64,000 bases of DNA from an uncultured Rhodobacterales bacterium (GCA_964590405.1 CAZPXZ010000004.1:23544-87543), one strand, 5' to 3'. Numbered from the stretch's first letter, positions 27,099-53,866 are shown. Numbers and translations: made by a program. Notes: generated by a model not told the origin, from the letters alone.

Positions 27099-29507
27099 CT
27101 ATTCGCGGAGGCGCGCTCCAGACGGATCGTAGACCGGGTCCCGCAGGACCGTTGCCGCGAAACGCTCATGCAGAATCTCCACTTCCAAGTTCCGGCCGGG
27201 TTCTGACTCCGCGCTCTCGATTAGCCCGACCGCGAGCATTTTGCCTGTGCGCCAGCCCATTCCGCCCGACGTAACCTGTCCGACCAGCCTGGCATCCGCG
27301 AATACCGGCTCGTCTCCCCAGCAGGGTGGAGCTTCAGTATCGAGTTCCAGCGTAGCAAGTTTGCGCTGGGGCGGATGCCGGCGTTCATGGTCCACGGTTT
27401 GGCTTCCGACATATTCCTTGTGCCGTGCGCAAAACCGCTCGAGACCCGCCGCGTGGGGTGTGATTTCGGTCGTCAGTTCGGAATTCCAGCTGCGATATCC
27501 CTTCTCCAGTCGCAGCATGCCCATGGCCCGGCTGCCAGTGAGAACGAGGCCGTGGCGTTCAGAGATACCCATCAGCGCATGAAAGAGATGCTCCTGCCGG
27601 TCTCGGCGGCAGTAGAGTTCCCAACCGAGCTCACCGGAGTAGCTGACCCTGAGAGCACGTACGTGAACGTTGGCGACCTCCACCCGGCGGGCCGAGAGGA
27701 AGGGAAAACGCGAGAAGGCGCCGCCGGACAATTCGTTGAGGATATCCCTGGACCTGGGCCCCGCCAGGCCAAGTGCGGCATACGCGTCGGTCACATCTTC
27801 GATGTCCACGCAATGGTCATGCACATTGGCCAGAAGCCAACGATGGATGAAGATGCGTGCCATGGTTGCACCAACGATATGAAACGAATCTCCTTCCCGG
27901 TGCACGGTTATGTCGCCGAGGATGCCGCCCCGGTTGTTCAGCAGTAGAGTCAAGACAATTCGGTTGTCGACCATGGGAACCGGTGCAGAGCACACACGCT
28001 CCAGGAAACCCTGCGCGCCTGGTCCCGAAACACGAAACTTGGCATAGGAAGACATCTCGGTCAGCCCGCATCCCGAAGCAATGGCGCGCGCTTCGTCGCC
28101 GACATGGTTCCACCAGTTGGGTCGCCGAAAGTTGGGCACTTCCACAGGCTCGACGCCGGCGGGCGCGAACCACAACGGCCGCTCCCAGCCATTTGCCTGT
28201 CCCATGACGGCACCGTGCAACAGCAACTCCTGGTGGATCGGTGCCATCCTCAGGTTACGGCCAGATTTTCGTTCGAGACCGGGATGGGATATTTCATAGC
28301 GGAGCGGATAGATTTCGTAGATTCTCTCACGGGCGAAGTCGCCAGTGGTCCAGGAACCGAAGCGTGCGACGTCAATGCAATGCAGGCAAAGCTCCGGTTC
28401 GCCGCGCCTGATCCATTCACTCAGGGCCAGACCAACACCGCCACCCTGCGCGATTCCGCCCAGAAAACCGCAGGCGACGAAGTAGTTCGGAATGCCGGGC
28501 AGGGGACCGACAATTGGTCGTCCGTCCGGGGAGAAACTGATTGCGCCGTTCACGGTTCGCCGAATTCCCGCCCGCTCGAGGGCTGGAACACGATGGACGG
28601 CCGCCGCCAGCCCATCGGAGAGCCGCTCGAGATCCTCGGGGAATAACTCCTCCCCAAATGACCAGGGCGCATCTGCACCGTTCCATGCGGCGCGGCAGCC
28701 CCTCTCCCACGGCCCGACAAGCAGTCCGGGGCCTTCCTGACGCAAGTAATACTGGCTGTCTGTATCCCGGATCATCGGTAGCCTTCCTTGATATCCTGCT
28801 ACTTCCGGAATGGCCTCTGTTTCCAGGTACTGGTGCTCCATGTTGGTGATCGGTACGCGGGCATCCACCAGGCGAGCCACCTTGTTCGCCCAGAATCCCG
28901 CGCAGTTGACTACGACTTCGCATTCGAGAGTGCGTTCTCCGGCGACAAGTCGCCAATACCCCGAAGAGAGACGCTCGATGCGCTCGACCCTGGCATTGCG
29001 GTAGATCCGTCCGCCGAGCCGTCGCGCGCCGGAAGCAAGGCCCATGGCCACGGAGTACGGATCGACATAGCCCTCGTCCGGATCCCACGCGCCGCCATAC
29101 AGGTCGTCGACTCTCACCAAGGGGTGTTTCGTGCGAATTTCATCCGGAGTGACAAGCTCGTACTCGATGCCCAGCGTACGGAACTTGCCTGCGAGTCGCC
29201 TGAATTCCTCCATCCTTTCCTGAGTCTGCGCGAGAAAGAAGCCCCCGACGATATGGCTGCCCACATCCTGGCCCACCTCTGTGCCCAAGCTGTCGTACAG
29301 GCGAATGGAATAGGCTTGAAGCGCCGACAGATTTGCATACGCGGACTGCGTATGGACGTTGCCGGCAGCGTGCCATGTTGCTCCGGCTGCCAGTTCGCGT
29401 CGCTCAAGCAGGAGCGGTTCCGGTTCCCCTGCCTTGGCAAGATGGTATAGCGTTGACAGGCCGACGATTCCGCCGCCGATGATGATGACGCGGTGGTGGG
29501 ATCCCAT
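27099..29507 (-). CDS. dimethylglycine/sarcosine dehydrogenase-like FAD oxidoreductase with C-terminal GcvT (folate-binding aminomethyltransferase) domain, paralogue A
   Basis: About 802 aa from ATG 29507, with SD GAGGA upstream. Dinucleotide fold VIIIGGGIVGLS and ATWHAAG (position of the covalent-FAD His in DMGDH/SDH). Long GcvT-like C-terminal half. Confidence 0.8.
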   Translation of the reverse strand: MGSHHRVIIIGGGIVGLSTLYHLAKAGEPEPLLLERRELAAGATWHAAGNVHTQSAYANLSALQAYSIRLYDSLGTEVGQDVGSHIVGGFFLAQTQERMEEFRRLAGKFRTLGIEYELVTPDEIRTKHPLVRVDDLYGGAWDPDEGYVDPYSVAMGLASGARRLGGRIYRNARVERIERLSSGYWRLVAGERTLECEVVVNCAGFWANKVARLVDARVPITNMEHQYLETEAIPEVAGYQGRLPMIRDTDSQYYLRQEGPGLLVGPWERGCRAAWNGADAPWSFGEELFPEDLERLSDGLAAAVHRVPALERAGIRRTVNGAISFSPDGRPIVGPLPGIPNYFVACGFLGGIAQGGGVGLALSEWIRRGEPELCLHCIDVARFGSWTTGDFARERIYEIYPLRYEISHPGLERKSGRNLRMAPIHQELLLHGAVMGQANGWERPLWFAPAGVEPVEVPNFRRPNWWNHVGDEARAIASGCGLTEMSSYAKFRVSGPGAQGFLERVCSAPVPMVDNRIVLTLLLNNRGGILGDITVHREGDSFHIVGATMARIFIHRWLLANVHDHCVDIEDVTDAYAALGLAGPRSRDILNELSGGAFSRFPFLSARRVEVANVHVRALRVSYSGELGWELYCRRDRQEHLFHALMGISERHGLVLTGSRAMGMLRLEKGYRSWNSELTTEITPHAAGLERFCARHKEYVGSQTVDHERRHPPQRKLATLELDTEAPPCWGDEPVFADARLVGQVTSGGMGWRTGKMLAVGLIESAESEPGRNLEVEILHERFAATVLRDPVYDPSGARLRE

Positions 29508-29704
29508 CGGAGTGTCCTCTCTGGAAGACTGGCTGGTTACCTGCTTGGCAAAGGCGGTGGCGTCACAATGGGCAATCCATCCCGGGATATCGCACTGCCA
29601 AGCTGTTAGTCCTGTATCCTCCGTGATATATGCGGATGCCATGCGGCGCTAGCGCCGGGGTCCGCCTACCGGAAGTTGTGTCGGTCATCCCGGAGCCGCG
29701 AGTT

Positions 29705-30457
29705 CTACAGGATCTGGCTGAGGAATTCCCTGGTTCTGGGATCCTTCGCGCGGTCGAAGAAGGTGTCGGGCGGTCCGTGTTCCACGATGACGCCATTGTC
29801 CGTGAAATAGATGTGATCAGCGATTTCGCGGGCGAAACCCATTTCGTGGGTCACCAGGATGCAGGTCATTCCCTCCGCGGCGAGTTCCTTGATGGTTACC
29901 AGCACCTCCTTCACCGTCTCCGGGTCAAGCGCGGCCGTAACTTCGTCAAAAAGCATGACGTCGGGATTCATCGCGAGAGAGCGGGCAATTGCGACGCGTT
30001 GCTGCTGTCCTCCCGAGAGCTCTCCCGGATATGCATCCTCCTTGCCCTCGAGCCGGACCTTTCGCATCAATTGTCTTGCGCGCTGTTCCACGCTCTCACG
30101 GTCCTGCCGGAGGACCAGCAGCGGCGCCATCATGATGTTCTCCAGCGCGGTCCTGTGCGGGAAGAGGTTGTATTGCTGAAACACCATGCCGACCTTTTTT
30201 CGCAATTCGAGCTTGTTGAGATTCGGGTCATGCACTTCACGTCCCTCGACGGTGATGGAGCCGGACTGGATATCGTTCAGCGCATTGATGCAACGGATGA
30301 GGGTTGACTTTCCGGAACCGGAGGGGCCGATGATACAGATGACCTCTCCCTTCATCACGGAGATCGATACGCCCCTGATGACTTCCAGTTCACCAAACGA
30401 TTTGTGAACGTCCTTGAGACAGACGATGGGCTGGTCGGGAGTCCAATGGCCGGACAT
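29705..30457 (-). CDS. polar amino acid ABC transporter ATP-binding protein
   Basis: Walker A GPSGSGKST, signature LSGGQQQRVAIAR, Walker B MLFDEVTAALD. ATG 30457 lies inside a longer ORF. Confidence 0.9.
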   Translation of the reverse strand: MSGHWTPDQPIVCLKDVHKSFGELEVIRGVSISVMKGEVICIIGPSGSGKSTLIRCINALNDIQSGSITVEGREVHDPNLNKLELRKKVGMVFQQYNLFPHRTALENIMMAPLLVLRQDRESVEQRARQLMRKVRLEGKEDAYPGELSGGQQQRVAIARSLAMNPDVMLFDEVTAALDPETVKEVLVTIKELAAEGMTCILVTHEMGFAREIADHIYFTDNGVIVEHGPPDTFFDRAKDPRTREFLSQIL

Positions 30458-30465
30458 GAACGTTC

Positions 30466-31323
30466 CTATTGCTTTACGGCGAACTCTTGCTCGAGCCGTC
30501 GGGTGTAAACAGCGATCGGGTAGCTGTAGATGAAGAACCAGGACATCAGCCACAGGTACATCGGGATCAGGTACTCGCTTCGTGCCTCGGCAGCGAGTGC
30601 ATCCTGGGTCAGGGTCATACCGTCATTGACACCGAGTATGGAAATCAGCGGAGTCGACATTGTCAGGATGCAGTACCAGTTCATCCAGGGTGGAATCATC
30701 CGTTTCACGCATTGCGGAAGGATGATGCGCCAGAGCGTCTGTCTCCGGGTAAAGGCCAGGCTTTCTGCCGATTCCCACTGGCCGGTCGGAATTGACAGGA
30801 TGGCTCCGCGAACGATTTCGGACACATTCGCCATGATCGGAAGCGATAGAGCCAGGGTCGCCTTCGTCCAGCCGGGAATGTCGAACCGCTGACCCCCGAT
30901 TTCGACCGTGAATGGCAACAGCAGCATGAAGTAGAAAAGAAGTACAAGCCAGGGGGAATTGCGGAAGAGTTGGGTTGCACACCAGCAGAGACTCCGGATC
31001 GGTTTGCTCGGCGAAACCTGTCCAATTCCAACCCAGAGACCCATGAACGTGCCGAGCCCCATGGCAACGAAACTGACGACGATGTTCAGGATGAACCCAC
31101 CGAATTCTCCTGGGGGGCCAAGAAACATCAACGGAGACCACTTGACGATGGTCTCCAGGGCTGTCTGTTCTCCCGTGCCGAGCAATTGTGCCTGGGCGGT
31201 GTCCAGCAGGATCCAGGCCACGAGTACGGCGATCATGGCGGCACCGAAACGTGGGTCGGCGAGCGCGGCCGGGATTGCTCTGTGCCACTGCCATTCCTTC
31301 CGAAACGGCCGGAAGGCCTTCAT
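30466..31323 (-). CDS. amino acid ABC transporter permease
   Basis: About 285-aa polytopic protein of the His/Glu/Gln/Arg/opine permease type. Start MKAFRPFRKEW at 31323 inside a longer ORF. Confidence 0.8.
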   Translation of the reverse strand: MKAFRPFRKEWQWHRAIPAALADPRFGAAMIAVLVAWILLDTAQAQLLGTGEQTALETIVKWSPLMFLGPPGEFGGFILNIVVSFVAMGLGTFMGLWVGIGQVSPSKPIRSLCWCATQLFRNSPWLVLLFYFMLLLPFTVEIGGQRFDIPGWTKATLALSLPIMANVSEIVRGAILSIPTGQWESAESLAFTRRQTLWRIILPQCVKRMIPPWMNWYCILTMSTPLISILGVNDGMTLTQDALAAEARSEYLIPMYLWLMSWFFIYSYPIAVYTRRLEQEFAVKQ

Positions 31324-31376
31324 GACCGGGAGGTCAGTGCTTCCGGACAGGACGTGGCCCCTTGGGCGATGAACCA

Positions 31377-32114
31377 TCACTGTCCGAATCCCGGGATGCG
31401 CATTGAGCGTTCCCATCGATACATCAGCCAGACAACCGTTCCGACCAGGATGATGTAGACAACCCACACCACGTTCATCATTTCCGGTACGTTGTACTCG
31501 TCCGACCAGATCTGGTTGGATACGTAGAGTGTTTCCGGCACGGCGATGGCGTAGGCCACGGTTGTCGTCTTGACCAGATTGATCAGGTTGTTGTTGAGAG
31601 CCGGAAGGCAAACGCGAAATGCCAGCGGGAGGGTCACATACCGATAGACCTGCAACTTGGTATAGCCCAGGGAATGGGCAGCTTCGACAGTTGAATCCGG
31701 CACCGACTCAATGCCCGCACGAAATATCTCGGTATTGAAGGCGCCAGCAAAGAATGACAGCGAAATCACCGCCCAGCCGAAACTGTCCAGGACTCCACCG
31801 CGAATGTCGAAGAGGCTGGCGATTCCACGATCAACGGCGAAATAGAAGAAATAGAGTTGAACCAACGGGGGGGTGTTTCGGAAGAAAGCGATATACCCCT
31901 GCATGACGACGCGGATCAGCACGAAGCGGGACATCTGCAGCCATGCGCCCAGTATTCCCACAATGATACTGGCGACAACGCAGACGACAGACAGCAGAAT
32001 GGTTGTCCAGATACCCCGGATGAACCGGGCACGGTCCCATTCATCGAAGAAGATGGTCAGCTTTATGCCGTGGGCCTCATGCAGCCATCTGAACCATTCG
32101 GCTACGATGTCCAC
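31377..32114 (-). CDS. amino acid ABC transporter permease
   Basis: 245-aa polytopic protein of the same permease family, sitting between the binding-protein and second permease genes. Confidence 0.85.
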   Translation of the reverse strand: MDIVAEWFRWLHEAHGIKLTIFFDEWDRARFIRGIWTTILLSVVCVVASIIVGILGAWLQMSRFVLIRVVMQGYIAFFRNTPPLVQLYFFYFAVDRGIASLFDIRGGVLDSFGWAVISLSFFAGAFNTEIFRAGIESVPDSTVEAAHSLGYTKLQVYRYVTLPLAFRVCLPALNNNLINLVKTTTVAYAIAVPETLYVSNQIWSDEYNVPEMMNVVWVVYIILVGTVVWLMYRWERSMRIPGFGQ

Positions 32115-32148
32115 TCAGGTGCATCCCTCGGAGTGCCGGTAAGGAGGA

Positions 32149-32176
32149 CGCGGCGACAGGGCAGTCTGTCGCCGCG
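32149..32176 (-). other. GC-rich intercistronic stem-loop (11-bp perfect stem, 6-nt loop) between binding-protein and permease genes
   Basis: CGCGGCGACAG-ggcagt-CTGTCGCCGCG read directly from the sequence. No U-tract follows. Confidence 0.5.
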
Positions 32177-32195
32177 ACGAACGCAGGAGGAGGGT

Positions 32196-33107
32196 CTATT
32201 CGCCTTCGTCATGCACGGCGTCACAGATCTTGTCGCCGGCTTTGCATTTCTCGTGCATTTCCGCAAGCCAGGCAGTCGCCGGGATGCCCCACTTTGCTTC
32301 GAGTTCAACAAGCAAGCCGGAAGTGTGCCAGTCGATGATTGCCTCCGAAAGGGCCTGGCCGATCGGTTCGTGCAGGTCTTCTTTGCGGACGGCTGCGCCC
32401 CAGGGAACATCTGCGACTACCGGAGTGGCGATGGAGAAGTCGGCCCATTTTTCGGGTTCGTTCACCTTGCGCGGAATGAAGGCGGAATCATCGTAGATCC
32501 AACCGACACAGCGGCCGTCAAGTAGCGCTGCCAAGACTTCGGCCACACCCTTGAAGGCAATTACCTCGGCACCATTCTTCTGCCCATGGTCCTTGTTGTA
32601 CCAGGCTCCCTGGATGCCGCAAATCTTCTTGTCGGCAACCGATTCCCAGCTATCAATTCCGGAGTCCTTGTGCGCGAGCACGGCGACACCCGAGGAGTAG
32701 TAGTTCGGTTGCACGATGCCGACCACCTCCCGGCGCTCCACCTTGTCGGACATGGTGGCGATCATCACGTCGATCTTGCCCTGCTCCAGGAATTGCATGC
32801 GGTTGGACGCAACGACAACGACCAGTTCAAGTTCGATTTCCTTGCCGGCGGCATCGCCGATCCGCCGCGCAAGATCGCGAATCATGTCGATTTCCATCCC
32901 GACAATGTTGCCGTCCGAATCGCGCATGCCCCAAGGCGCATAATCGGCCTTTACGCCGGCGACGAGCTTGCCCCGTTCAATCACGTCATCAAGAGTTCCG
33001 GCCTGTGCCGAAGCCGTTAGGAAACCGGCGAGAGCAAACGCTTCGGCGCCGGCCGAAAGGACCTTCCGAGGGACTCGTCCCACAACGTCCATCCATTCTC
33101 TTCTCAT
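32196..33107 (-). CDS. polar amino acid ABC transporter substrate-binding protein (family 3)
   Basis: 303 aa. Signal peptide ending TASAQAG, then RGKLVAGVKADYAPWGMRDSDGNIVGMEIDM, typical of family-3 SBPs. Confidence 0.85.
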   Translation of the reverse strand: MRREWMDVVGRVPRKVLSAGAEAFALAGFLTASAQAGTLDDVIERGKLVAGVKADYAPWGMRDSDGNIVGMEIDMIRDLARRIGDAAGKEIELELVVVVASNRMQFLEQGKIDVMIATMSDKVERREVVGIVQPNYYSSGVAVLAHKDSGIDSWESVADKKICGIQGAWYNKDHGQKNGAEVIAFKGVAEVLAALLDGRCVGWIYDDSAFIPRKVNEPEKWADFSIATPVVADVPWGAAVRKEDLHEPIGQALSEAIIDWHTSGLLVELEAKWGIPATAWLAEMHEKCKAGDKICDAVHDEGE

Positions 33108-33147
33108 GTTGTTCTCCTTCTTTTTTCAGCGCAATTCCTTGCGATCT

Positions 33148-34020
33148 TCACGGAGCCCAGAATTCTCCCAGGCTGTGATTCTGGCGGGCGACAGCACTGA
33201 TTCGAGCTTCCGCCTGCGGGCCTGCCCGGGCAACCAGCATGCCGATCATCGTTTCCAGAAGAACGAGCGTTGCGGTATAGGATGGAAAGAACGTCGGACC
33301 GTCCGATGGCACGACAAACCGGTGCTGTGCATGAACGAGTCCCGGAAAGACATGGCTGTCGGTGATCGCGATCAGGCTCGACCCGGATTCCGCCGCGGTT
33401 TCGCAGGCGCGGACCGCCAGACGCGCGTACGGTGCCTTGCTCAGTACTATGACCGTGTAGCTGGGCTTAAGCCGTGCCATGGCGGCGCCAAAGGAGACCC
33501 CGCTCCGTCCCACGACTACCCAACGCTCGCTGAACCAACTGGTGATGTATGCGAGATGCTCCCCCAGTCCCGCGGACCCAAGTGCCGCCACCATGATTAC
33601 ACGGTTTGCCCCTGCGACGCAGTCGACTGCAGCTGCGAAACGGGCCTCGTCCAACCCGTTGACCATGTTTTCAATATTGGTTACGCAGGCAGCGCTGTGG
33701 CGGCGCAAGAGGGGAGCCATTCCCTTTCTGTCCGCCTCCGATTGCAATTGGCGCGCCTTGCTGGAAAAAGTGACAGTCGGGCGCTCCAGGTCGGCCCTGC
33801 TGGCTTCCCGCATTGCCTCGTAGGAATCGTAACCGAGAGCCAGCGCGAGGCGGGAAAGGGTCGGGGGTGAGACGCCGCTGGCTGCAGCTACCGAGCGAAG
33901 ACTGCGAGTGGCGATATCAAACGGATTGTCAACGAGGTGGTCTGCAGCCACGCGCAACTTCCCGCTGAGGGCAGCGTAGTTAGCCGTGATTGCTTCATGG
34001 ACAGATGCTTCCTGCGGCAT
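33148..34020 (-). CDS. MurR/RpiR family transcriptional regulator (HTH_6 + SIS domain)
   Basis: About 290 aa from ATG 34020 (SD GGGGGAG upstream). N-terminal HTH (IATRSLRSVAAASGVSPPTLSRLALALGY) followed by a SIS-like domain. Confidence 0.8.
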   Translation of the reverse strand: MPQEASVHEAITANYAALSGKLRVAADHLVDNPFDIATRSLRSVAAASGVSPPTLSRLALALGYDSYEAMREASRADLERPTVTFSSKARQLQSEADRKGMAPLLRRHSAACVTNIENMVNGLDEARFAAAVDCVAGANRVIMVAALGSAGLGEHLAYITSWFSERWVVVGRSGVSFGAAMARLKPSYTVIVLSKAPYARLAVRACETAAESGSSLIAITDSHVFPGLVHAQHRFVVPSDGPTFFPSYTATLVLLETMIGMLVARAGPQAEARISAVARQNHSLGEFWAP

Positions 34021-34063
34021 ACTCCCCCCACATTCTATACCTAATGATACGTTTGTTCTAGGC

Positions 34064-34115
34064 CTTGTCAAGTTCAATTTCAAGTGTAATATTGTAGTCG
34101 GAACTTGTCGGCAAG
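34064..34115. promoter_or_regulatory. candidate operator repeats in the RpiR / DMGDH-like divergent promoter
   Basis: AT-rich 107-bp divergent region containing CTTGTCAAG (34064-34072) and CTTGTCGGCAAG (34104-34115), both CTTG..CAAG inverted repeats. Function is inferred only. Confidence 0.25.
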
Positions 34116-34127
34116 GGCGCCGCTCGC

Positions 34128-36548
34128 ATGACTGCGGATCTTCCTGCCAGTACACCGGTCGTCGTGATCGGAGGCGGTGTGCTTGGTTGCTCCACGCTCT
34201 ACCACTTGGCGTGCGACGGAGTCACCGACGCCGTTCTGCTCGAGCGGAACAAGCTGACCTCTGGTACCACTTGGCACTCCGCTGCCCAGGTGCGGATGCT
34301 GCGATCGACGCGCAGTATGACGGAGATCATCCGGTATTCCGCTGATCTCTATGCGCGTCTGGAATGTGAGACCGGGCAGCATACCGGGTGGGCCCGGACT
34401 GGCTCCCTCTCGATCGCAACCAACCCGGATCGCCTGGTTCATATTCGCCGGCAGGAGGCTTTGGCCCGTCTCTTTGGCGTGGACGCAGTATCGATCTCAC
34501 CGGGCGAGGCGAAGGAACGCTGGCCCCTGATGCAGGTTGACGATGTGCTCGGCGCGGTTTGGTCAGAGGGTGATGGCCGGGTCAGCCCATCGGATCTCTG
34601 TGCAGCGCTGGCAAAGGGTGCACGGCTGCGCGGTGCGCGGATCTTCGAGGATACCGCGGTGACAGGCATTCACACCCGGCAGGGCCGGATCTTCGGTGTC
34701 GAGACGCAAGCGGGAACCATCCGATGCGACACGGTGGCGATATGTGCCGGGCTCTGGAGTCGAGAGGTTGCAGCGATGGGCGGCGCCATGGCCCCGGTCT
34801 GGCCGTGCGAGCACTCATATCTCCTGACACGGACGGTCCCCGGTGCTCGGCGCAACTTGCCAACCCTGTCGGATCATGATGGCCATCTCTACATCCGGGA
34901 TGAGGGTGATGGACTCCTGGTCGGCTGTTTCGAGCCGGGCGCCAAGCCCATTGATCCGGAGCGGTTCGATGAGGACTTTGCTTTCAGCCTGCTCCCGGAG
35001 GATTGGGAGCACTTCGAGCCAATGCTGCAGAACGCGCTGCATAGGATCCCGGCTCTGGCCGAAGCGGAAGTCAGGACCCTGGTCAACGGACCTGAGAGCT
35101 TTACCCCGGACGGCATGTTTCTCCTTGGAGAAACTGCTGAGACCAGTGGCCTCTTTCTCGGTTGCGGCATGAATTCCGTAGGGATGGCGACAGGGGGTGG
35201 CGCAGGCCGGGCGCTTGCCAGCTGTCTCCAGCATGGGGCGCCGCCATCAGACCTTCATGAAGCGGATCCGAAGCGTTTCCCGGAGTGCTTCAACTCGGTA
35301 GGCGCTCTTGTCGAGCGCGTGCCGGAAGTCCTCGGGCGGCACTACGAAGTCGCCTATCCCGGTCGGCAATGGGACAGCTGCAGGGGGTTGCGGCGGATGC
35401 CGCTGCACGACACATGGGTTGCCGAGGGAGCGCATTTCGGGCAATTCGCCGGGATCGAACGGCCCCTGTACTTTGCAAGCCGGGGAACCCCGCGCCTGGG
35501 CTTCGGGAAACCCGATTGGCATTCGCAGGTCGAGCGCGAAGTTCAGGCCGCGTCGACGAGGGCGGCCATCTTTGACCAGTCCTCCCTTGGCAAGATCGAT
35601 GTCCGGGGGAACGGGGCCTGCGCCTTCCTCGACCGGGTTTGTGCGAACCGCATGGATCGGGTTCCGGGAAGTGTCATCTATACCGTCATGCTGAACGAAG
35701 CGGGCGGTGTCGAGAGCGATTTGACCGCAATCCGGATCTCGGAAGACCACTTTCGGCTCCATGTCGGTACTGCTAGCCTTCGGCGCGACCTTGCCTGGCT
35801 TCGACGTCATCTGGACGTCCGAAACGACGTCGATATCACTGATGTGACAGACTCTTTCGCCATTCTGGCGCTGATGGGCCCGGCGAGCGGGCGCATCGCC
35901 GAGGTCGTCGGCGCAGAAGGGCTGCATGAGCTTGGTTACTTTCGCGCCGATCAGGTGCGGATCAACGGCATCCCTGCAATCGGCGCGAGACTCTCCTATG
36001 TCGGTGAGCCGGGATGGGAGATCACCATGGCCGCTACGGATGCATCCCGTGTCTATCGCTCGATGCGGGCGGCGGGCGCAGAACCGGCTGGCCTGTTCGC
36101 ACAGACATCCATGCGCATCGAGAAGGGGTTTCGCGCCTACGGGCACGAACTCGATTCGGACATCACGCCCATCGAGGCCGGCCTCGGCTTCTCACTGGGC
36201 TGGGGCACGGGATTCATTGGCGAGGCGGCGCTCAATGCGGCGGGAGTGCAGGATTCTGCCCTGCGAATCGCCTCTCTCGTGCTGCATGATGTGGAAGCAG
36301 TTCCCCTCGGCGGAGAACCGGTTCTGATGCAAGGACGAATTGTGGGACGGACGACATCTGCCGCCTTTGGTTACCGGGTCGAGGCACCGGTCGCCTTGGC
36401 GGATCTCGAGCACCTTACCGAGCGCGCGGAAGACGCGGCGGTCGAGGTTGACATCGCGGGGGCATTGCATTCGGCCACGGTTCGACTTGCTCCCGCATTT
36501 GACCCGGAGGGCGAACGCTTGCGTCGCACCGGGAGTTGGAGGGCCTGA
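34128..36548 (+). CDS. dimethylglycine/sarcosine dehydrogenase-like FAD oxidoreductase with GcvT domain, paralogue B
   Basis: 806 aa. VVVIGGGVLGCS dinucleotide fold, TTWHSAAQ motif, GcvT-like C-terminal half. Same architecture as 27099-29507. Confidence 0.8.
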   Translation: MTADLPASTPVVVIGGGVLGCSTLYHLACDGVTDAVLLERNKLTSGTTWHSAAQVRMLRSTRSMTEIIRYSADLYARLECETGQHTGWARTGSLSIATNPDRLVHIRRQEALARLFGVDAVSISPGEAKERWPLMQVDDVLGAVWSEGDGRVSPSDLCAALAKGARLRGARIFEDTAVTGIHTRQGRIFGVETQAGTIRCDTVAICAGLWSREVAAMGGAMAPVWPCEHSYLLTRTVPGARRNLPTLSDHDGHLYIRDEGDGLLVGCFEPGAKPIDPERFDEDFAFSLLPEDWEHFEPMLQNALHRIPALAEAEVRTLVNGPESFTPDGMFLLGETAETSGLFLGCGMNSVGMATGGGAGRALASCLQHGAPPSDLHEADPKRFPECFNSVGALVERVPEVLGRHYEVAYPGRQWDSCRGLRRMPLHDTWVAEGAHFGQFAGIERPLYFASRGTPRLGFGKPDWHSQVEREVQAASTRAAIFDQSSLGKIDVRGNGACAFLDRVCANRMDRVPGSVIYTVMLNEAGGVESDLTAIRISEDHFRLHVGTASLRRDLAWLRRHLDVRNDVDITDVTDSFAILALMGPASGRIAEVVGAEGLHELGYFRADQVRINGIPAIGARLSYVGEPGWEITMAATDASRVYRSMRAAGAEPAGLFAQTSMRIEKGFRAYGHELDSDITPIEAGLGFSLGWGTGFIGEAALNAAGVQDSALRIASLVLHDVEAVPLGGEPVLMQGRIVGRTTSAAFGYRVEAPVALADLEHLTERAEDAAVEVDIAGALHSATVRLAPAFDPEGERLRRTGSWRA

Positions 36549-36552
36549 CAGG

Positions 36553-37872
36553 ATGCCACACATATTCCATCGTTCTACCGGTGCCGAGCCGCCGATCGCG
36601 GTGCGCGGCAAGGGGATGTACCTCTACGATGCTGCCGGCAAGCGTTATCTTGACGGCTCGGGCGGTGCAGCCGTTTCCTGCCTTGGCCACGGTGACGCCG
36701 ACATTTCTCGGGCGATCAGAGATCAGATCGATCAACTCGACTATGCACATACGGGCTTCTTCACGTCCGAAGCCGCGGAGACGCTCGCGGACAAGCTGAT
36801 CGCACATGCTCCGGGTGATCTTGACCGGGTGTGTTTTGTCTCCGGCGGTTCCGAGGCGGTCGAGGCTTCATTGAAGCTTGCCCGCCAGTACTTTCTTGAA
36901 ATCGGCCAGCCGGAGAGGTACCGCATCATTACTCGCCGGCAGAGCTATCACGGCAATACGCTTGGGGGGCTCGCTGCTGGCGGCAGCCTGTGGCGGCGCC
37001 ACCCCTTTACGCCAATGCTGCTCGAGACATCACACATTTCTCCCTGTTACGAGTATCGGGGGCGGGAGGACTGGGAGAGCCCCATCGAATATGGCCAGCG
37101 AGTTGCCGACGAGTTGGAAGAGGAGGTGCTTCGGCTTGGCCCGGAGACCGTCATGGCGTTCATTGCAGAGCCGGTCGTCGGAGCGACTCTCGGCGCCGTA
37201 GCAGCGGTCGATGGTTATTTTCGGCGCATCCGGGAGATTTGTGATCGCTATGGGATCCTGCTTATCCTCGATGAAGTGATGTGCGGCATGGGGCGAACAG
37301 GAACACTGTTCGCCTGTGAGCAGGACGGGATCGCCGCCGACATCGTCGCCATCGCAAAGGGTCTTGGCGGCGGTTATCAGCCCATTGGCGCCATGCTCTG
37401 TTCAAGTGCCATCTTCGAAGCCATCCAGATCGGTTCTGGTTCGCTTCAGAATGGCCACACCTATATGGGGCACCCGGTTGCCTGCGCCGCTGCTGCTGCC
37501 GTAGTAACAAAGCTGACGGATGGGGGTCTTGCCATGCGCTCGATGGTCATGGGCAAGGCGCTGCGGTCTGCGCTGGAGGGCGCCTTCGCGCAGCATCCTC
37601 ACGTGGGAGACATACGCGGGCGCGGTCTCCTCCTTGGCCTGGAAGTGGTAGCAGATCGAGGAACCAAGGAACCATTCGATCCGGAGCGCGCCGTGCACAA
37701 GCGCATCAAGAGCGCCGCCTTGTCGGCAGGCCTGGCCTGCTATCCGGGTGGCGGAACGGCGGACGGCGTCGCCGGTGACCATGTACTGCTGGCTCCGCCC
37801 TACATTCTCGATTTCAACCACATCGAGGAAATTGTCGAGAAGCTTGGCATGGCCTTTGACGAAGCCTTATGA
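36553..37872 (+). CDS. class-III (omega) aminotransferase
   Basis: About 439 aa from ATG 36553, 4 nt after the upstream stop. Motifs GGAAVSCLGHGD, SGGSEAVE, LILDEVMCGMGRTG. PLP-Lys context AIAKGLGGGYQP. Confidence 0.85.
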   Translation: MPHIFHRSTGAEPPIAVRGKGMYLYDAAGKRYLDGSGGAAVSCLGHGDADISRAIRDQIDQLDYAHTGFFTSEAAETLADKLIAHAPGDLDRVCFVSGGSEAVEASLKLARQYFLEIGQPERYRIITRRQSYHGNTLGGLAAGGSLWRRHPFTPMLLETSHISPCYEYRGREDWESPIEYGQRVADELEEEVLRLGPETVMAFIAEPVVGATLGAVAAVDGYFRRIREICDRYGILLILDEVMCGMGRTGTLFACEQDGIAADIVAIAKGLGGGYQPIGAMLCSSAIFEAIQIGSGSLQNGHTYMGHPVACAAAAAVVTKLTDGGLAMRSMVMGKALRSALEGAFAQHPHVGDIRGRGLLLGLEVVADRGTKEPFDPERAVHKRIKSAALSAGLACYPGGGTADGVAGDHVLLAPPYILDFNHIEEIVEKLGMAFDEAL

Positions 37873-38702
37873 GATCACTTCCATACATGATGCTGGCCCC
37901 GAACGGGGCGCGGCGGGGAAGGGCGGACCATCCGAACCTTCCCGTGTCCATCGGCGACACAGTTGAGGCTACCCGGTCCGCAGTTCTGGCGGGTGCGGAC
38001 GGATTGCATCTGCATGTACGCGATGCTGCCGGCGAACATTCGCTTGATGTGGGATTGTATCAGGAGGCTGTCGCGGCCGTGGCGGAGGCCTGCCCCGGTC
38101 TCCCGATCCAGGTCACGACCGAGGCGGCGGGTCGCTATTCGCCGAAGCAGCAGATCGCTCTTGTCGATTCACTTGGCCCCGGAGCGGCTTCGGTCGCGCT
38201 GCGAGAGTTGCTGGCCGACGGTGCCGTTGTGCCAGCGAAGGAGGCGTTCCTGCGCTGGTCCGAAAGGGGGATCGCAATTCAGCACATTCTCTATGCCCCG
38301 GGGGATTTTCGAGAATTGATCGGAGTTCTCGGCGCTGATGCCGTCTCCCGTGCACAATTGTTATTCGTACTCGGCAGATACGCGCCGGCGAGGGATGGCC
38401 GGGTGCAGGATCTCGACGGTTTTGTCGCAATCCTTCGTTCGCTGCCTGCCACGCCGGATTGGGCAGCATGCGCGTTTGGTCCTGGGGAAACCGAGTGCCT
38501 TCTGGCGGCGCATGTTGCGGGCGGAAAACTGCGCGTTGGTTTCGAGAACAATTTGGTCAATTCCGATGGCAGGCTCGCGACTGACAACGCGGAACGTGTG
38601 GCCGATCTCCGAAAGGCGTTGCGACAGGGCGTAGCGGGCAGGTTCGTGCATTCCGGCAGTGCCAGCGGGTCGACCGGTGTTTCAGCGGTGGTGGACCACT
38701 GA
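37869..38702 (+). CDS. DUF849 / beta-keto acid cleavage enzyme (3-keto-5-aminohexanoate cleavage protein family)
   Basis: 277 aa. MLAPNGARRGRADHPNLPVSIGDTVEATRSAVLAGADGLHLHVRD resembles the BKACE N-terminus as I recall it. ATGA overlap with the aminotransferase stop. Confidence 0.7.
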   Translation: MRSLPYMMLAPNGARRGRADHPNLPVSIGDTVEATRSAVLAGADGLHLHVRDAAGEHSLDVGLYQEAVAAVAEACPGLPIQVTTEAAGRYSPKQQIALVDSLGPGAASVALRELLADGAVVPAKEAFLRWSERGIAIQHILYAPGDFRELIGVLGADAVSRAQLLFVLGRYAPARDGRVQDLDGFVAILRSLPATPDWAACAFGPGETECLLAAHVAGGKLRVGFENNLVNSDGRLATDNAERVADLRKALRQGVAGRFVHSGSASGSTGVSAVVDH

Positions 38703-39126: not shown

Positions 39127-40011
39127 ATGGGAGCTCTCTGGGGACTGCTTGCCGCCGGACTGATCGGCTGCGCCGACAGCACGACACGGGTCACGGCACG
39201 GCGGATGCCCATTCCGCACTTGATCTTCTTCACGGCCTGGCTCGCATTGCCCCTCGGGATTCTCCTGTTCGGCCTGCCGGACACGGCAAGCGTGTCGTCG
39301 CGCTGGTCGGTTTTCCTTGCCGGCCTGGCGGGCTTCCTCCATGTCGGTGTGCTCGTCCTCCTCTTCCGTGCGCTCGCCGACGGCCCGGTGTCTGTGGCAG
39401 TGGCTGGTACAGCATCCAACACTGTGTTCCTGATCGCCTGGAATGTCCTTGCCGGGGAGCCCTGGACCTTGCTGCAGGTGATGGCGGGTCTCGGTGTATT
39501 TCTGGGCGTGGCCATGGCTACTCGTCCCGAGCGGACGATCCGGGAAGTGGCCACCCCCCGACAACTCCGGAAGACGGCGTTGTTGGGGCTCGGCGCCGGG
39601 TTCATCTCGTCTGTTCGACTGTTCCTGATTCAGGAGGCTTCTGTTGGAATCGGTCCGGGAGATGCGATGGTGGCGATGCGCATCGGGGCCGCTGCTGCGG
39701 TGCTGGTCATGCTGTTGGTCCTGGTCAGGGGGAGATTGACCGTGGTCCGGGTGCCGCGGGGCAGGATTGGGAGCCTCGTGATTCTGCAGGTCCTACTGGA
39801 GACGGCAGCGGTACTGGCGCTGTTGTACGGTTCGGTCGTCGCGGGACGCATCGGAGCGGCGGTGGGCTTCGCTGTCGTGCCCGCAGCGTCCACGATCGCC
39901 GCCAGGCTGTTCCTCGGTGACCCCATCGGACGCAGGCGGGGATGGTGGGTCCTGTTCGTGGTGGCTTGCGTCGTCCTCTCGACGCTTGCCGAACGGCTGA
40001 TGCAGTTGTGA
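39127..40011 (+). CDS. DMT/EamA-like membrane permease
   Basis: 294 aa, about 10 hydrophobic segments in two repeats. Family assignment rests on composition and topology only. Confidence 0.5.
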   Translation: MGALWGLLAAGLIGCADSTTRVTARRMPIPHLIFFTAWLALPLGILLFGLPDTASVSSRWSVFLAGLAGFLHVGVLVLLFRALADGPVSVAVAGTASNTVFLIAWNVLAGEPWTLLQVMAGLGVFLGVAMATRPERTIREVATPRQLRKTALLGLGAGFISSVRLFLIQEASVGIGPGDAMVAMRIGAAAAVLVMLLVLVRGRLTVVRVPRGRIGSLVILQVLLETAAVLALLYGSVVAGRIGAAVGFAVVPAASTIAARLFLGDPIGRRRGWWVLFVVACVVLSTLAERLMQL

Positions 40012-40143: not shown

Positions 40144-41391
40144 ATGCGCTATTCGATTTTCACTCTGGCACGCAACGCGCTTGCCTACCACGAGGGCTGG
40201 AGCCGGGCGTGGCGATCTCCAGAGCCGCAGCCGAGCTACGACACGGTGATCGTTGGAGGAGGCGGCCACGGCCTTGCCACCGCCTACTATCTTGCCCACA
40301 ACCATGGAATGCGCAGCGTAGCAGTACTGGAGAAGGGACCCATCGGCCTGGGAAACACGGGCCGCAATACGACCATCATCCGTTCCAATTACCTGCAGGA
40401 CGCCTCTGCGGGTGTATACAAGCTCTCTCATGATCTTTACGAGACCCTGAGCCAGGAACTGAATTTCAATGTCATGTTCAGCCCTCGAGGCGTCCTGACG
40501 CTCTGCCATACGGAGCACGATCTGCGGGGCATGTCCCGGATTGAACACGCCAACCGCGTCCACGGCATCGATTCGCGGATGGTCGGGGTGGAGGAGATGA
40601 AGCGGATCTGTCCGCCGTTGAACTTGTCGCGGGACGTGCGGTTTCCGATCCTGGGCGGTCTTTGGCAGGCGCGTGGCGGAACCGCGCGCCATGACGCGGT
40701 TGCCTGGGGCTATGCCCGTGCCGCAGACCGACTCGGTGTTGACGTCATTCAGAACTGCGAGGTGACGGGCTTCGACATTGACCGCGGACGCGTTCGCGGG
40801 ATTCACACGACGCGGGGTGACATTCGCTGCAACCGGGTCGGGCTCGTCGTCGCAGGCCACTCCACGCGGCTTGCCGCGATGGCAGGGTTCCGGCTCCCGA
40901 TCGAATCGGTCACACTGCAGGCGTATGTCTCGGAGCCGGTCAAGCCCTGTCTCGACATCGTGGTGATGGCGAGTACGGTGCACGGCTATGTCAGCCAGTC
41001 CGACAAGGGAGAGTTGGTTCTCGCCGGTGGAACTGACAGCTGCAACTCCTTTTCACGCCGTGGATCCTTTCACCATGTTCGCGAGTCTTGCACGGCTCTG
41101 GTCGAGTTGTTTCCCATGATTTCCCGCCTCCGGTTGATGCGGCAATGGGGTGGCACGGTTGACATGACGGCGGATCGTTCACCGATCATTGGCCCATCAC
41201 CGGTCGAGGGCATCTTCCTGAACTGCGGCTGGGGAACCGGTGGATTCAAGTCGATTCCGGGTTCCGGGCATTGCTTTGCCGCGACGCTCGCGAACGGTGC
41301 TCCCGACCAGGTGGCAGCCCCATTCGGGCTGGAGCGGTTTCGCGAAGGACGGCCGATCGATGAGTCGGTCGCCGCCGGCGTAGCGCACTGA
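40144..41391 (+). CDS. soxB: sarcosine oxidase subunit beta
   Basis: 415 aa. N-terminus MRYSIFTLARNAL...WRSPEPQPSYDTVIVGGGGHGLATAYYL is typical of heterotetrameric SoxB. Confidence 0.9.
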   Translation: MRYSIFTLARNALAYHEGWSRAWRSPEPQPSYDTVIVGGGGHGLATAYYLAHNHGMRSVAVLEKGPIGLGNTGRNTTIIRSNYLQDASAGVYKLSHDLYETLSQELNFNVMFSPRGVLTLCHTEHDLRGMSRIEHANRVHGIDSRMVGVEEMKRICPPLNLSRDVRFPILGGLWQARGGTARHDAVAWGYARAADRLGVDVIQNCEVTGFDIDRGRVRGIHTTRGDIRCNRVGLVVAGHSTRLAAMAGFRLPIESVTLQAYVSEPVKPCLDIVVMASTVHGYVSQSDKGELVLAGGTDSCNSFSRRGSFHHVRESCTALVELFPMISRLRLMRQWGGTVDMTADRSPIIGPSPVEGIFLNCGWGTGGFKSIPGSGHCFAATLANGAPDQVAAPFGLERFREGRPIDESVAAGVAH

Positions 41392-41401
41392 GGGCTGTTC
41401 C

Positions 41402-41713
41402 ATGCTTCGAATTCCCTGTCCGTGCTGTGGCATAGAGGGCGACGAGAGTGAGTTTGCCTATGGCGGTGAGGCGCATATCGCGAGGCCCGATGGCGAGTTC
41501 GCCACAGACGTGGAATGGGCAGAGTATTTGAGCGTCCGAAACAACCCCATGGGCCCGCATCTCGAACGCTGGCGTCATGCCATTGGTTGCGGAAAGTGGT
41601 TTCACCTTGCCCGCAATACCGTGACCCAGGAGGTATATGGCGCCTATGCGGCTGACGCCGCCGCCCCGTCGGAGGAGATACTCCGGCGCATGCGTGGGGA
41701 GCCGGATACATGA
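41402..41713 (+). CDS. soxD: sarcosine oxidase subunit delta
   Basis: 103 aa. Cys-rich N-terminus MLRIPCPCCG, positioned between soxB and soxA. Confidence 0.85.
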   Translation: MLRIPCPCCGIEGDESEFAYGGEAHIARPDGEFATDVEWAEYLSVRNNPMGPHLERWRHAIGCGKWFHLARNTVTQEVYGAYAADAAAPSEEILRRMRGEPDT

Positions 41714-50549: not shown

Positions 50550-50593
50550 GCGCTCGGTTGCACACGGGAACTGGGAGGCAGATTCTGTCCCAT
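50546..50593 (-). other. candidate 15-codon upstream ORF (MGQNLPPSSRVQPSA) coupled to dgoK
   Basis: GGAGGA lies 6 nt upstream of ATG 50593. The uORF TGA overlaps the dgoK ATG (ATGA). dgoK itself has no visible SD. Confidence 0.2.
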
Positions 50594-51640: not shown

Positions 51641-51641
51641 G

Positions 51642-53845: not shown

Positions 53846-53866
53846 GGTGAGCCATCCTTCCTGTCT

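Follow-up and report, generated by a model that had tools for sequence, protein, structure and literature searches.

A 64,000-nt stretch of DNA from an uncultured Rhodobacterales bacterium (the window) carries a two-layer island, built around one RpiR-controlled divergent promoter, that we tentatively propose, at slightly less than an even chance, to import an N-methylated relative of beta-glutamate, demethylate it, and turn it into acetoacetate. In the feeder layer, an ABC system (29705-33107) would import an N-methylated amino acid, most simply an N,N-dimethyl and/or N-methyl derivative; DMGDH-like enzyme A would then act on the tertiary amine to give a secondary one, from which its paralogue B would produce the primary amine, each demethylation delivering a C1 unit to tetrahydrofolate (THF) via the GcvT domain. 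In the core layer, the substrate would be a beta-amino dicarboxylate, with beta-glutamate (3-aminoglutarate) the likeliest candidate; a class-III aminotransferase would transaminate it to 3-oxoglutarate, and a Zn-dependent DUF849 enzyme would decarboxylate this product to acetoacetate and CO2 without acetyl-CoA. Three elements of this scheme are inferred: that the amine is beta-glutamate, which methylated compound is imported, and that A acts before B. A sequence-only reading of this DNA knew of no characterized pathway with this gene combination. Strictly this holds, but earlier work had noted the core of aminotransferase, DUF849, RpiR, and transporter genes as a conserved synteny; what is new is the feeder, i.e., the demethylases and the ABC importer.

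All genes named in the sequence-only reading are present where it placed them, with small corrections to three starts (Pfam, translations; Table 1). Its junctions were also recovered: the TGA stop of B is followed, after 4 nt, by the aminotransferase ATG at 36553, and the aminotransferase and DUF849 genes overlap by ATGA (37869-37872). Comparative genomics found the same gene sets again in numerous genomes and metagenome contigs that are unrelated, and their grouping is far beyond chance. The cluster is real, co-regulated, and marine-bacterial.

Table 1. Features of the island and its downstream neighbors (window positions)
Feature	Position	Strand	Product	Basis or remark
DMGDH-like A (predicted N-demethylase)	27099..29507 (ORF 27099-29642)	-	about 802 aa	Pfam DAO+FAO_M+GCV_T+GCV_T_C; Shine-Dalgarno; homologue length
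ABC transporter ATPase	29705..30457 (corrects ORF 29705-30553)	-	250 aa	Pfam ABC_tran; translation
ABC permease 2	30466..31377 (not the 30623-31294 ORF)	-	303 aa	BPD_transp_1; translation
ABC permease 1	31377..32114	-	245 aa	Pfam BPD_transp_1, HEQRo 3-TM type
Periplasmic binding protein, polar-amino-acid family	32196..33107	-		Pfam SBP_bac_3
RpiR/MurR-family regulator	33148..34020 (ORF 33148-34155)	-		Pfam HTH_6+SIS
Divergent promoter/operator region	34021..34127	.		sigma70-like matches; conserved site layout
Putative operator site 1	34045-34060			TGATACGTTTGTTCTA
TTGTCAA element	34065-34071			4-nt spacer on either side, between sites 1 and 2
Putative operator site 2	34076-34091			AATTTCAAGTGTAATA
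DMGDH-like B (predicted N-demethylase)	34128..36548	+	806 aa	Pfam DAO+FAO_M+GCV_T+GCV_T_C; WHSAA motif
Class-III (omega/beta-amine) aminotransferase	36553..37872 (ORF 36340-37872)	+	439 aa	Pfam Aminotran_3
DUF849/BKACE-fold Zn enzyme, putative "G6" type	37869..38702	+	277 aa	Pfam BKACE, PF05853
EamA/DMT-family membrane transporter, possibly associated	39127..40011	+		Pfam
soxBDAG, heterotetrameric sarcosine-oxidase genes	40144..45331	+		Pfam DAO; SO_alpha_A3/GCV_T

The DUF849 protein matches PF05853 with 152.8 bits and has the TIM-barrel fold of that family (Pfam); the top Foldseek match of its AF2 model (pLDDT 93.7) is Kce (TM 0.76). The 3-keto-5-aminohexanoate cleavage enzyme Kce (PDB 2Y7D-G) and BKACE15 of Paracoccus denitrificans (PDB 8RIO/8RIP/9HNF), at 25 to 27% identity, share this fold, the Zn ligands (His-x-His and the Glu of GFE[DN]N), and a conserved Arg. 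The ligands H47/H49/E226, which align with Kce H46/H48/E230, are invariant in 30 family members, and R222 is kept. [quoted passage not shown] We nevertheless consider this scheme very unlikely. The catalytic-Glu strand P-E-x-E, present in eight canonical BKACEs, is changed to x-Q-H-I with an invariant Q138-H139-I140, and none of the 30 aligned family members has the catalytic Glu (Kce E143). An Ile stands family-wide where Kce E143 and BKACE15 E171 are found, the latter mapped by offset from matched ranges rather than by residue-level alignment to 8RIO; an E171L mutant of BKACE15 is inactive (PMC11961710). Asp231 is replaced by Asn, E85 and E113 are new invariant residues, and all NCBIfam BKACE equivalogs score far under their cut-offs (best, 82 versus 382).

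The gene context argues in the same direction. Table 7 of PMC4922564, summarizing Bastard et al. 2014, lists group G6 as “not BKACE, presenting decarboxylation activity”, and G6 was reported to lack BKACE activity when 20 substrates were screened, showing decarboxylation instead. NetSyn cluster 14/G6 is said to decarboxylate beta-ketoglutarate in Suppl. Table S1 of the NetSyn preprint (10.1101/2023.02.15.528638), although this might be a secondary activity, given that the substrate is unstable. This cluster, found in Alpha-, Beta-, and Gammaproteobacteria, combines a DUF849 gene next to a class-III (“BioA-like”) aminotransferase with RpiR and a TRAP binding protein plus UspA or a Glu/Asp-type ABC subunit. 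The DUF849 orthologues show exactly this context, of which the aminotransferase, RpiR, and an ABC system are present in the window; the window differs in its polar-amino-acid ABC importer and adds two THF-linked demethylases to a published description that has no DMGDH-like genes. From synteny and the loss of the catalytic residue, we infer that the window's DUF849 protein would belong to G6; it is probably a decarboxylase of 3-oxoglutarate, a beta-keto acid, rather than an acetyl-CoA-dependent cleavage enzyme. With the Glu missing and the context that of a reported decarboxylase without BKACE activity, BKACE cleavage as the last step is not upheld.

The aminotransferase is a fold-type I omega-aminotransferase (PF00202, 302 bits; Pfam) and scores 722.8 bits (cut-off, 485) with NCBIfam PRK07483, a family that carries no assigned substrate; about 90 solved relatives at E<1e-40 do not assign one either. 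Its gene immediately precedes that of the DUF849 protein in 61 of 80 genomes, and a TAXI-TRAP system, the usual transporter of the module, is present at 40 of the 80 loci. Isolates that carry the module include Paracoccus pantotrophus DSM 2944 and Roseovarius halotolerans. The TAXI binding proteins are about 70% identical (442 bits) to VcGluP of VcGluPQM (VC0430/VC0429), the L-glutamate-specific TAXI-TRAP of Vibrio cholerae (PMC11574862); as there, the QM component is fused and a Usp lies downstream. Of the 13 VcGluP ligand-contact residues, nine are invariant in 44 module TAXI binding proteins, and both carboxylate-binding sub-sites of the glutamate-specific protein are kept, while three pocket changes (S40G, D157Q, M201T) are consistent. 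The predicted pocket thus indicates that the ligand would be a C5 amino-dicarboxylate other than L-Glu. Taken with the core module, this Glu-like but altered pocket points to a route from beta-glutamate via 3-oxoglutarate to acetoacetate and CO2. Beta-glutamate, an osmolyte, is a major marine metabolite, with 730 mM reported in Nitrosopumilus (PMC8269262). A third variant of the module, with a GlnHPQ-like ABC system and a C45 Ntn-hydrolase (10 loci), follows the same logic, a derivative-unmasking enzyme placed before the core. In the window, the ABC importer stands in for a TAXI system, which is absent there.

The same architecture might serve a different amine: beta-alanine betaine, N,N-dimethyl- or N-methyl-beta-alanine, or another N-methyl beta- or omega-amino acid, whose free amine would be transaminated, e.g., to malonate semialdehyde, and then decarboxylated, e.g., to acetaldehyde. 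Beta-alanine betaine is a known marine metabolite (PMC9321204), class-III aminotransferases commonly accept beta-alanine, and B homologues are named “4-methylaminobutanoate oxidase” in some sources, so that such an architecture can act on N-methyl omega-amino acids. However, the carboxylate sub-sites kept by the usual TAXI partners, the C5 skeleton that the GlnHPQ-like variant also indicates, and an activity on beta-ketoglutarate, the only one reported for G6 in the supplementary table cited above, make this quite unlikely. The carnitine-like and opine-like substrates considered in the sequence-only reading are likewise judged unlikely. For the favored beta-glutamate relative, a literature search found neither N-methyl- nor N,N-dimethyl-beta-glutamate as a natural product, and no acetoacetate-activating gene is present within the 64,000-nt window.

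The proposal that the ABC system is the importer is supported. The best solved relatives of the binding protein bind Arg, Gln, Glu, or Asp, and its orthologues (47 to 51% identical) accompany both B and the DUF849 gene. ATPases 80 to 85% identical to that of the window flank B orthologues in nine metagenome contigs. In Granulosicoccus and Halioglobus, where the ATPases are 83% identical, a window-type ABC system and the DUF849 gene lie in one operon. Permease 2 has equal length and position in locus L087, which with L001 is one of the two closest relatives of the window.

The window regulator has the N-terminal HTH_6 and C-terminal SIS architecture of RpiR/MurR regulators, both domains being weak (SIS, 25.5 bits, just over the cut-off of 25; HTH_6, 20.6 bits, under the cut-off of 28.3; Pfam). 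They are clearer in orthologues, e.g., 56.8 and 31.4 bits, respectively, in L007. The rpiR gene is probably the first of an rpiR-ABC-A operon, and regulators 38 to 54% identical to its product are divergent from the aminotransferase or B in many loci. The sequence-only reading found RpiR an odd controller for amine catabolism; on the contrary, it is the standard regulator of the module, occurring in 43 of the 80 loci with a conserved operator/promoter layout, and the gene context suggests a non-sugar effector.

Three of the four sigma70-like matches found in 13.4 kb fall in the 107-bp rpiR/B intergenic region, on both strands, and the rpiR-directed match scores 11/12. A site-4nt-TTGTCAA-4nt-site layout was found in 17 of 34 orthologous intergenic regions, compared with 0 of 200 shuffles. 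The half-sites of the window are degenerate, and its match to the operator palindrome is not significant on its own, yet they are conserved in L087 though the spacers differ. In L085 and L007 it is B rather than the aminotransferase that follows the conserved operator pair, which places B inside the same regulon. The single RpiR-controlled divergent unit described earlier is supported.

Both A and B show the domain order DAO, FAO_M, GcvT, GcvT_C of DMGDH, SARDH, and DMGO, and share the folate domain and covalent-FAD His with DMGDH (4P9S and 5L46; rat, human) and Arthrobacter DMGO (1PJ5). The covalent-FAD motif reported earlier was confirmed as WHAAG in A (TWHAAG at ORF residue 90) and WHSAA in B (TWHSAA at residue 49). 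Because its homologues are 802 to 805 aa long, A most likely begins at Met46 (29507), a codon with a GAGAGGA Shine-Dalgarno sequence. As A and B are only 33% identical, they are old paralogues and not a recent duplication. A matches the rat/human DMGDH structures with 554 bits, whereas B is more distant (408 bits), and no NCBIfam equivalog reaches its cut-off for either. The gamma-N-methylaminobutyrate oxidase of the nicotine pathway is a relative of the DMGDH/sarcosine dehydrogenase/DMG oxidase family. We propose that A and B, both predicted FAD- and THF-dependent N-demethylases, perform the first demethylation (tertiary to secondary amine) and the removal of the last N-methyl group, respectively, the latter freeing the primary amine.

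B recurs in a consistent setting. Its orthologues (52 to 82% identity) lie directly 5' of the aminotransferase gene in L085/86, L087, L007, L100, L101, and L112; besides these loci, about 10 contigs place B beside this type of ABC system and RpiR. The aminotransferase, with or without DUF849, also accompanies B in L089, L111, and L124, RpiR recurs with B as well, and the window-type ABC system does so in nine contigs. The B-linked aminotransferases fall into at least three separate clades, and in three unrelated lineages B separates the aminotransferase from the conserved RpiR operator/promoter (gaps of 4 to 60 nt). Its partner is A in the window, L087, and the tandems of L090, L133, and L134, an MSOX/MTOX-like oxidase in L091, and a GbcA-like Rieske oxygenase in L007; L096 and L108 have short DAO-family genes in the position seen in L091, with weak tblastn matches only. 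The three demethylase classes beside B are a non-orthologous replacement of the first demethylation step. This context fits a THF-linked removal of methyl groups from an N,N-dimethyl/N-methyl amino acid before the core acts on it, and the operons with aminotransferases of several clades, the A-B tandems, and the three partner classes support the earlier proposal of two sequential THF-linked N-demethylations followed by transamination.

Glycine betaine is demethylated stepwise by GbcAB, DgcAB or DMGDH, and SoxBDAG, and proline and hydroxyproline betaine by Rieske plus flavoprotein demethylases. These pathways share with the window the principle that N-methyl groups are taken off one after another before the carbon skeleton is attacked, with interchangeable Rieske, flavin, and THF-linked demethylases. 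The window differs in having RpiR instead of a GbdR/AraC-type regulator, another importer class, and a predicted transaminase and DUF849 decarboxylase at the end of the pathway. The conserved neighbors of B are the amino-acid ABC importer, RpiR, and the aminotransferase rather than betaine/choline genes, which argues for an N-methyl amino acid other than dimethylglycine or sarcosine.

The gene context of A is ambiguous as to substrate. With A close to genuine DMGDH and soxBDAG next door, the substrates of A (and B) might just be dimethylglycine and sarcosine derived from glycine betaine, and beta-glutamate would be degraded independently by the aminotransferase and DUF849 enzyme in a shared island under a shared regulator. 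In keeping with this, soxBDAG lies alongside in the window as well as in L001 and L087, an A orthologue in Shimia follows an MTTB quaternary-amine methyltransferase homologue, L133 has RpiR, A, and B alone, and many B and ABC loci (L091, L094, L096, L098, L099, L102) have no aminotransferase or DUF849 gene nearby, where the B product may need no such step. The order aminotransferase-DUF849-EamA-soxBDAG is kept in L001 and L087, with SoxD and SoxG called in both; soxBDAG is conserved only in the window's lineage and lies outside the widespread module, and the EamA gene was not found with the module in lineages other than L001/L087. We regard this division of labor as rather unlikely, since B sits between the RpiR operator/promoter and the aminotransferase, the ABC and DUF849 genes share operons in Granulosicoccus and Halioglobus, and a sarcosine-specific B would duplicate soxBDAG. 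The pocket of the sole TAXI locus containing B also differs, reading 157T/200W/201A compared with Q/Y/T in most modules without B.

The locus consists of two divergent gene strings bounded by ppdK (24516-27068) and the triose-phosphate isomerase gene (45513-46250). The gene cluster described in the sequence-only reading was confirmed overall, together with its junctions, namely a 4-nt gap between the DMGDH-like gene B and the class-III aminotransferase gene, which in turn overlaps the DUF849 gene by ATGA. Starts were corrected for the DMGDH-like gene A, which probably begins at Met46 with a GAGAGGA ribosome-binding site (its homologues have 802 to 805 aa), for permease 2, whose frame differs from that of an ORF without a Pfam match, and for the ATPase. 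A and B are only 33% identical. No convincing intrinsic terminators were found within or after the operons (13 found versus 10.8 expected).

Features of the locus, with the comparison loci carrying the C45/GlnHPQ variant in the last row
Feature	Position	Strand	Remarks
rpiR	33148-34020	-	
Binding protein	32196-33107	-	SBP_bac_3
Permease 1	31377-32114	-	
Permease 2	30466-31377	-	
ATPase	29705-30457	-	250 residues
DMGDH-like A	27099-29507	-	DAO-FAO_M-GcvT-GcvT_C; W-H-[AS]-A motif
DMGDH-like B	34128-36548	+	DAO-FAO_M-GcvT-GcvT_C; W-H-[AS]-A motif
Class-III aminotransferase	36553-37872	+	
DUF849/BKACE-fold protein	37869-38702	+	
EamA permease	39127-40011	+	
soxBDAG	40144-45331	+	
C45/GlnHPQ variant loci	L136 (Paracoccus pantotrophus pPAN2) 3447-9768		also L006, L013, L015, L020, L051, L067, L076, L077, L078

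We fetched 80 genome loci encoding DUF849 relatives and mapped the window proteins and their neighbors onto them (L numbers denote fetched genome loci or metagenome contigs). The aminotransferase gene lies directly upstream of the DUF849 gene in 61 of the 80 loci, and a TAXI-TRAP system, composed of an NMT1_3 binding protein, a fused QM permease, and Usp, is present in 40/80. An RpiR regulator, regarded in the sequence-only reading as unusual for amine catabolism, is encoded in 43/80 and is thus no peculiarity of it. Carriers of the core, i.e., the aminotransferase and the DUF849 protein, include Roseovarius, Paracoccus, Hoeflea, Roseibium, Cohaesibacter, and Granulosicoccus; among the culturable ones are Paracoccus pantotrophus DSM 2944, Roseovarius halotolerans CECT 8110, Maritalea mobilis, and Cohaesibacter marisflavi. 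The context of the DUF849 orthologues is the one that a supplementary table of the NetSyn preprint lists for the BKACE-family synteny group G6 (cluster 14): a BioA-like aminotransferase, RpiR, a TRAP solute receptor, UspA, and a glutamate/aspartate transporter subunit. The entry for this group reads [quoted passage not shown] and an independent summary of the 2014 screen (PMC4922564) lists G6 as “not BKACE, presenting decarboxylation activity.” Although noted before, the core module is experimentally unproven, and its demethylase-bearing form is a new variant.

Judged by its sequence, the window “BKACE” is not a typical BKACE. The BKACE fold is present (Pfam, 152.8 bits; the AF2 model, with a pLDDT of 93.7, is closest to Kce, with a TM score of 0.76), and the Zn ligands H47, H49, and E226 are retained, as is R222. 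An alignment was made of 12 members of the family and eight canonical enzymes (Kce, 3CHV, 9ZSC, and five paralogous BKACEs from the fetched loci). While each of the eight has P-E-x-E-x-[YF] on one strand of the barrel, this strand reads x-Q-H-I-[LV]-Y in the window's family, with H139 and I140 invariant and Q138 near-invariant in 30 sequences. The second Glu of the strand is Kce E143 and, by the offset of matched ranges (a coordinate inference, not a residue-level alignment), corresponds to BKACE15 E171, the catalytic base whose E171L mutant is inactive according to a 2025 structural study (PMC11961710). Thus, the fold and Zn ligands are common to Kce and the window's family, whereas the P-E-x-E strand differs, as does Kce D231, which is replaced by Asn; E85 and E113 were gained as invariant residues in the family. 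All matches to the NCBIfam BKACE equivalogs are far below cutoff (best, 82 bits versus 382). The last step is more likely a decarboxylation than an acetyl-CoA-dependent cleavage. It is in this step that our interpretation departs from the initial one, whose import, two tetrahydrofolate-linked demethylations, transamination, and single regulator are retained. These observations also correct a routine misannotation, as the DUF849 genes are labeled “3-keto-5-aminohexanoate cleavage protein” in every genome carrying them.

Beyond BKACEs, a Foldseek search with the DUF849 model matched cis-epoxysuccinate hydrolase (5ZMU) and the oxalate biosynthesis enzyme ObcA (4NNA-C), so DUF849-like barrels support chemistries other than beta-keto acid cleavage. 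The window protein has 277 aa, and its C terminus, a tail of low pLDDT in the AF2 model, is ~17 to 25 residues longer than those of homologues (252 to 260 aa). The gap between the DUF849 and EamA genes (38650-39127 region) measures 424 bp, versus 86 to 162 bp in L001, the closest relative, and L087, a related metagenome contig.

Information on the substrate of the core was obtained from the TAXI binding protein of the module, which matches VcGluP, the L-glutamate TAXI binding protein of Vibrio cholerae (PDB 8S4J/9IBO), with 442 bits and ~70% identity. VcGluP is a high-affinity, L-glutamate-specific protein, and its contact residues are known from crystallography and mutagenesis (PMC11574862). 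Across 44 binding proteins associated with the module, V44, Y45, Y46, S75, Q93, H123, E125, G156, and G203 are invariant, while three contacts are consistently changed (S40G in 43/44, D157Q in 39/44, and M201T in 42/44). Therefore, both carboxylate subsites are kept and the residues near the amino/alpha-carboxyl end differ, which leaves a pocket that is glutamate-like yet altered. Class-III aminotransferases, as a class, handle non-alpha amines. Four observations, namely the altered pocket, the aminotransferase class, the reported 3-oxoglutarate decarboxylation, and a variant with a GlnHPQ-annotated transporter, converge on a route in which beta-glutamate (3-aminopentanedioate) would be converted by the aminotransferase to 3-oxoglutarate and by the DUF849 enzyme to acetoacetate and CO2. 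A scan of 10 other large ORFs of the window showed no acetoacetate-activating genes.

Beta-glutamate is ecologically plausible as a substrate. It is among the most concentrated solutes of marine ammonia-oxidizing archaea and of methanogens. In Nitrosopumilus maritimus, no other identified metabolite was as abundant (730 mM), and in Pacific particulate samples it rises with depth (PMC8269262). Neither a characterized catabolic route for beta-glutamate nor any mention of N-methyl-beta-glutamate was found in the searchable literature. The core and its glutamate-like TAXI importer constitute a concrete, widely distributed candidate route for beta-glutamate, one that is testable for an abundant archaeal osmolyte and requires no departure from known enzyme chemistry.

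The transporter variant occurs in ten loci, including one on the Paracoccus pantotrophus plasmid pPAN2, in which rpiR, a C45 Ntn-hydrolase gene, and glnQPH-like genes (annotated GlnHPQ by NCBI) are divergent from the aminotransferase and DUF849 genes. Because the hydrolase holds the place of the demethylases, an amide derivative would be unmasked ahead of the core. This arrangement suggests an amide substrate, beta-glutamine being an obvious guess, and supports a modular reading of the core.

B was found in one of the 80 DUF849 loci (Granulosicoccus, L007), and a second search, started from B, yielded metagenome contigs and loci with B orthologues. The window organization is repeated in L087 (B, 82% identical; aminotransferase, 91%). 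In an alphaproteobacterial metagenome-assembled genome (L085/L086), rpiR is divergent from B-aminotransferase-DUF849 with a TAXI system behind, and in Granulosicoccus the strings rpiR-DUF849-ABC and B-aminotransferase-Rieske-SDR run divergently. The aminotransferase gene follows B in L100, L101, and L112, B is found together with both core genes in L089, L111, and L124, and an RpiR gene adjoins B in L093 and L097 to L099. Nine contigs have a window-type ABC system (ATPase 80 to 85% identical) divergently upstream of B. In a neighbor-joining tree, the aminotransferases linked to B are spread over at least three separate clades, interspersed with B-less ones, indicating that B was gained or lost repeatedly with the aminotransferase staying the same kind of enzyme. 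On the evidence of gene order, the DMGDH-like genes are a recurrent, putative feeder of the core and not chance neighbors. In many loci with B and the ABC system, the aminotransferase and DUF849 genes are missing from the contig; either the core genes lie elsewhere in the genome or the product of B does not always need them.

The second demethylase found with B is A in the window, in L087, in the A-B tandems of L090 and L134, and in L133, where rpiR is divergent from A-B. It is a 390-aa oxidase in L091 (best NCBIfam matches, N-methyl-L-tryptophan oxidase and monomeric sarcosine oxidase, both below cutoff) and a Rieske oxygenase in L007 (best match, GbcA, below cutoff). Short DAO-family genes with only weak tblastn matches lie at the position of the L091 oxidase in L096 and L108. 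Such interchange of three enzyme classes at one position, with B unchanged, is what would be expected if an N,N-dimethyl amine were demethylated in two successive steps. The window variant predicts that methylated derivatives, a class so far not described, exist and are fed into the same route, with their C1 units recovered on tetrahydrofolate; this prediction is open to direct tests with a few purified proteins and culturable strains. In Shimia, an A orthologue is preceded by a homologue of MTTB-family methyltransferases, which fits A acting on a tertiary amine. A is nearer to genuine DMGDH (554 bits versus 408 for B), and soxBDAG is adjacent in this lineage; A may have a dimethylglycine/sarcosine role, which is less probable for B.

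The TAXI binding protein of L085/L086, the only one found in a B-containing locus, has T157, W200, and A201, positions that are Q, Y (or F), and T in most modules lacking B. The smaller residues and the Trp beside the site of the amino group would be well matched to an N-methylated amine, which is weak evidence because it comes from a single lineage. L001 keeps aminotransferase-DUF849-EamA-soxBDAG and has an AAA_15 gene instead of the rpiR-ABC-DMGDH block; the feeder block is thus dispensable and mobile.

The L001 gene in question (5883-7604) encodes a 573-aa AAA_15/AAA_21 ATPase (OLD/ABC-like) between ppdK and the aminotransferase gene and may mark an island exchange. In L087 (2966-4937; contig labeled 4x), the A orthologue is broken into two ORFs, one with DAO+FAO_M and one with GcvT, by sequencing error or as a pseudogene. 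The Granulosicoccus B-aminotransferase operon continues with the GbcA-like Rieske oxygenase and SDR genes (L007, 128-2058); the sequence retrieved there showed no reductase to partner the Rieske protein. Between the TAXI binding-protein and permease genes of the L085 module (6871-7926; likewise in L086) lies a gene for a PLP enzyme of the D-cysteate sulfo-lyase/D-cysteine desulfhydrase family (343 bits, below the cutoff of 450).

For 34 loci with window-type regulators, we compared the intergenic sequence that separates rpiR from the divergently oriented target. A strict layout, consisting of a 16-nt site (nnnTTCAnnTGTTTCA), 4 nt, TTGTCAA, 4 nt, and a second 16-nt site, was present in 17 of them and in 0/200 shuffles; in some loci the 16-nt site is a perfect TGAAAC-N4-GTTTCA palindrome. 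The same elements occur with wider spacing in L007, L023, and L085, among others. In L085 and L007 the operator/promoter precedes B and not the aminotransferase gene, placing B inside the same regulon. The window has identical geometry at 34045-34091, with half-sites diverged to TGTTCTA and TGTAATA that are conserved in L087 although the spacers differ. The 107-bp rpiR/B spacer also holds three of the four sigma70-like matches in 13.4 kb. The exact palindrome is not enriched in the window (14 matches versus 16 expected, with 3 mismatches), and the window's operator match alone is not statistically distinguishable from chance, so it is from positional homology that we infer RpiR regulation in the window.

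Other substrates were considered and rejected. A carnitine-type route, in which dehydrocarnitine would be cleaved by a BKACE, is at odds with the absence of a carnitine dehydrogenase, a DUF849 protein that is not of the cleavage type, and the non-betaine type of the importer. Two points argue against opine catabolism: Lys/Arg/Orn/opine binders are only remote relatives of the binding protein (93.6 bits versus a cutoff of 256), and the GcvT domains require an N-methyl group. For phosphonate (N-methyl-AEP) catabolism, there were only faint matches to the TIGR03329 and PbfA models and no phosphonatase genes.

A broader reading, which we hold only tentatively and consider rather unlikely as a whole, is that beta-glutamate, together with masked forms that have not yet been described, is handled in marine bacteria by a modular route dedicated to it; the masked forms would be N-methyl or N,N-dimethyl in window-type loci and amide (e.g., beta-glutamine) in C45/GlnHPQ-type loci. 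If so, N-methylated beta-glutamate would be a natural metabolite that has gone unrecognized and may serve as an osmolyte, one sub-branch of the SIS-domain RpiR regulators would sense an amino or keto dicarboxylate and not a sugar phosphate, and a BKACE-fold enzyme would have been converted to a CoA-independent beta-keto acid decarboxylase via a relocated catalytic acid/base.

RpiR regulators recur in methylated-amine clusters such as the large one of Shimia thalassica (L135, 7450-22418). One string there contains genes for a GlxA/AraC-type regulator, the MTTB homologue, and the A orthologue, and the opposite strand contains genes for a class-III aminotransferase, three MR_MLE proteins, a Zn-ADH, and an 812-aa DMGDH-like protein, followed by RpiR and a Rieske oxygenase. 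The window itself contains an enolase-superfamily (MR_MLE) gene and a DAO-type FAD oxidoreductase gene with overlapping stop/start codons (59854-62249), resembling the epimerase and dehydrogenase pairs of the proline- and hydroxyproline-betaine pathways. A galactoside/galactonate utilization block (47084-53855, minus strand) encodes a GH42 beta-galactosidase, 2-keto-3-deoxygalactonokinase, and a sugar ABC transporter (SBP_bac_1).
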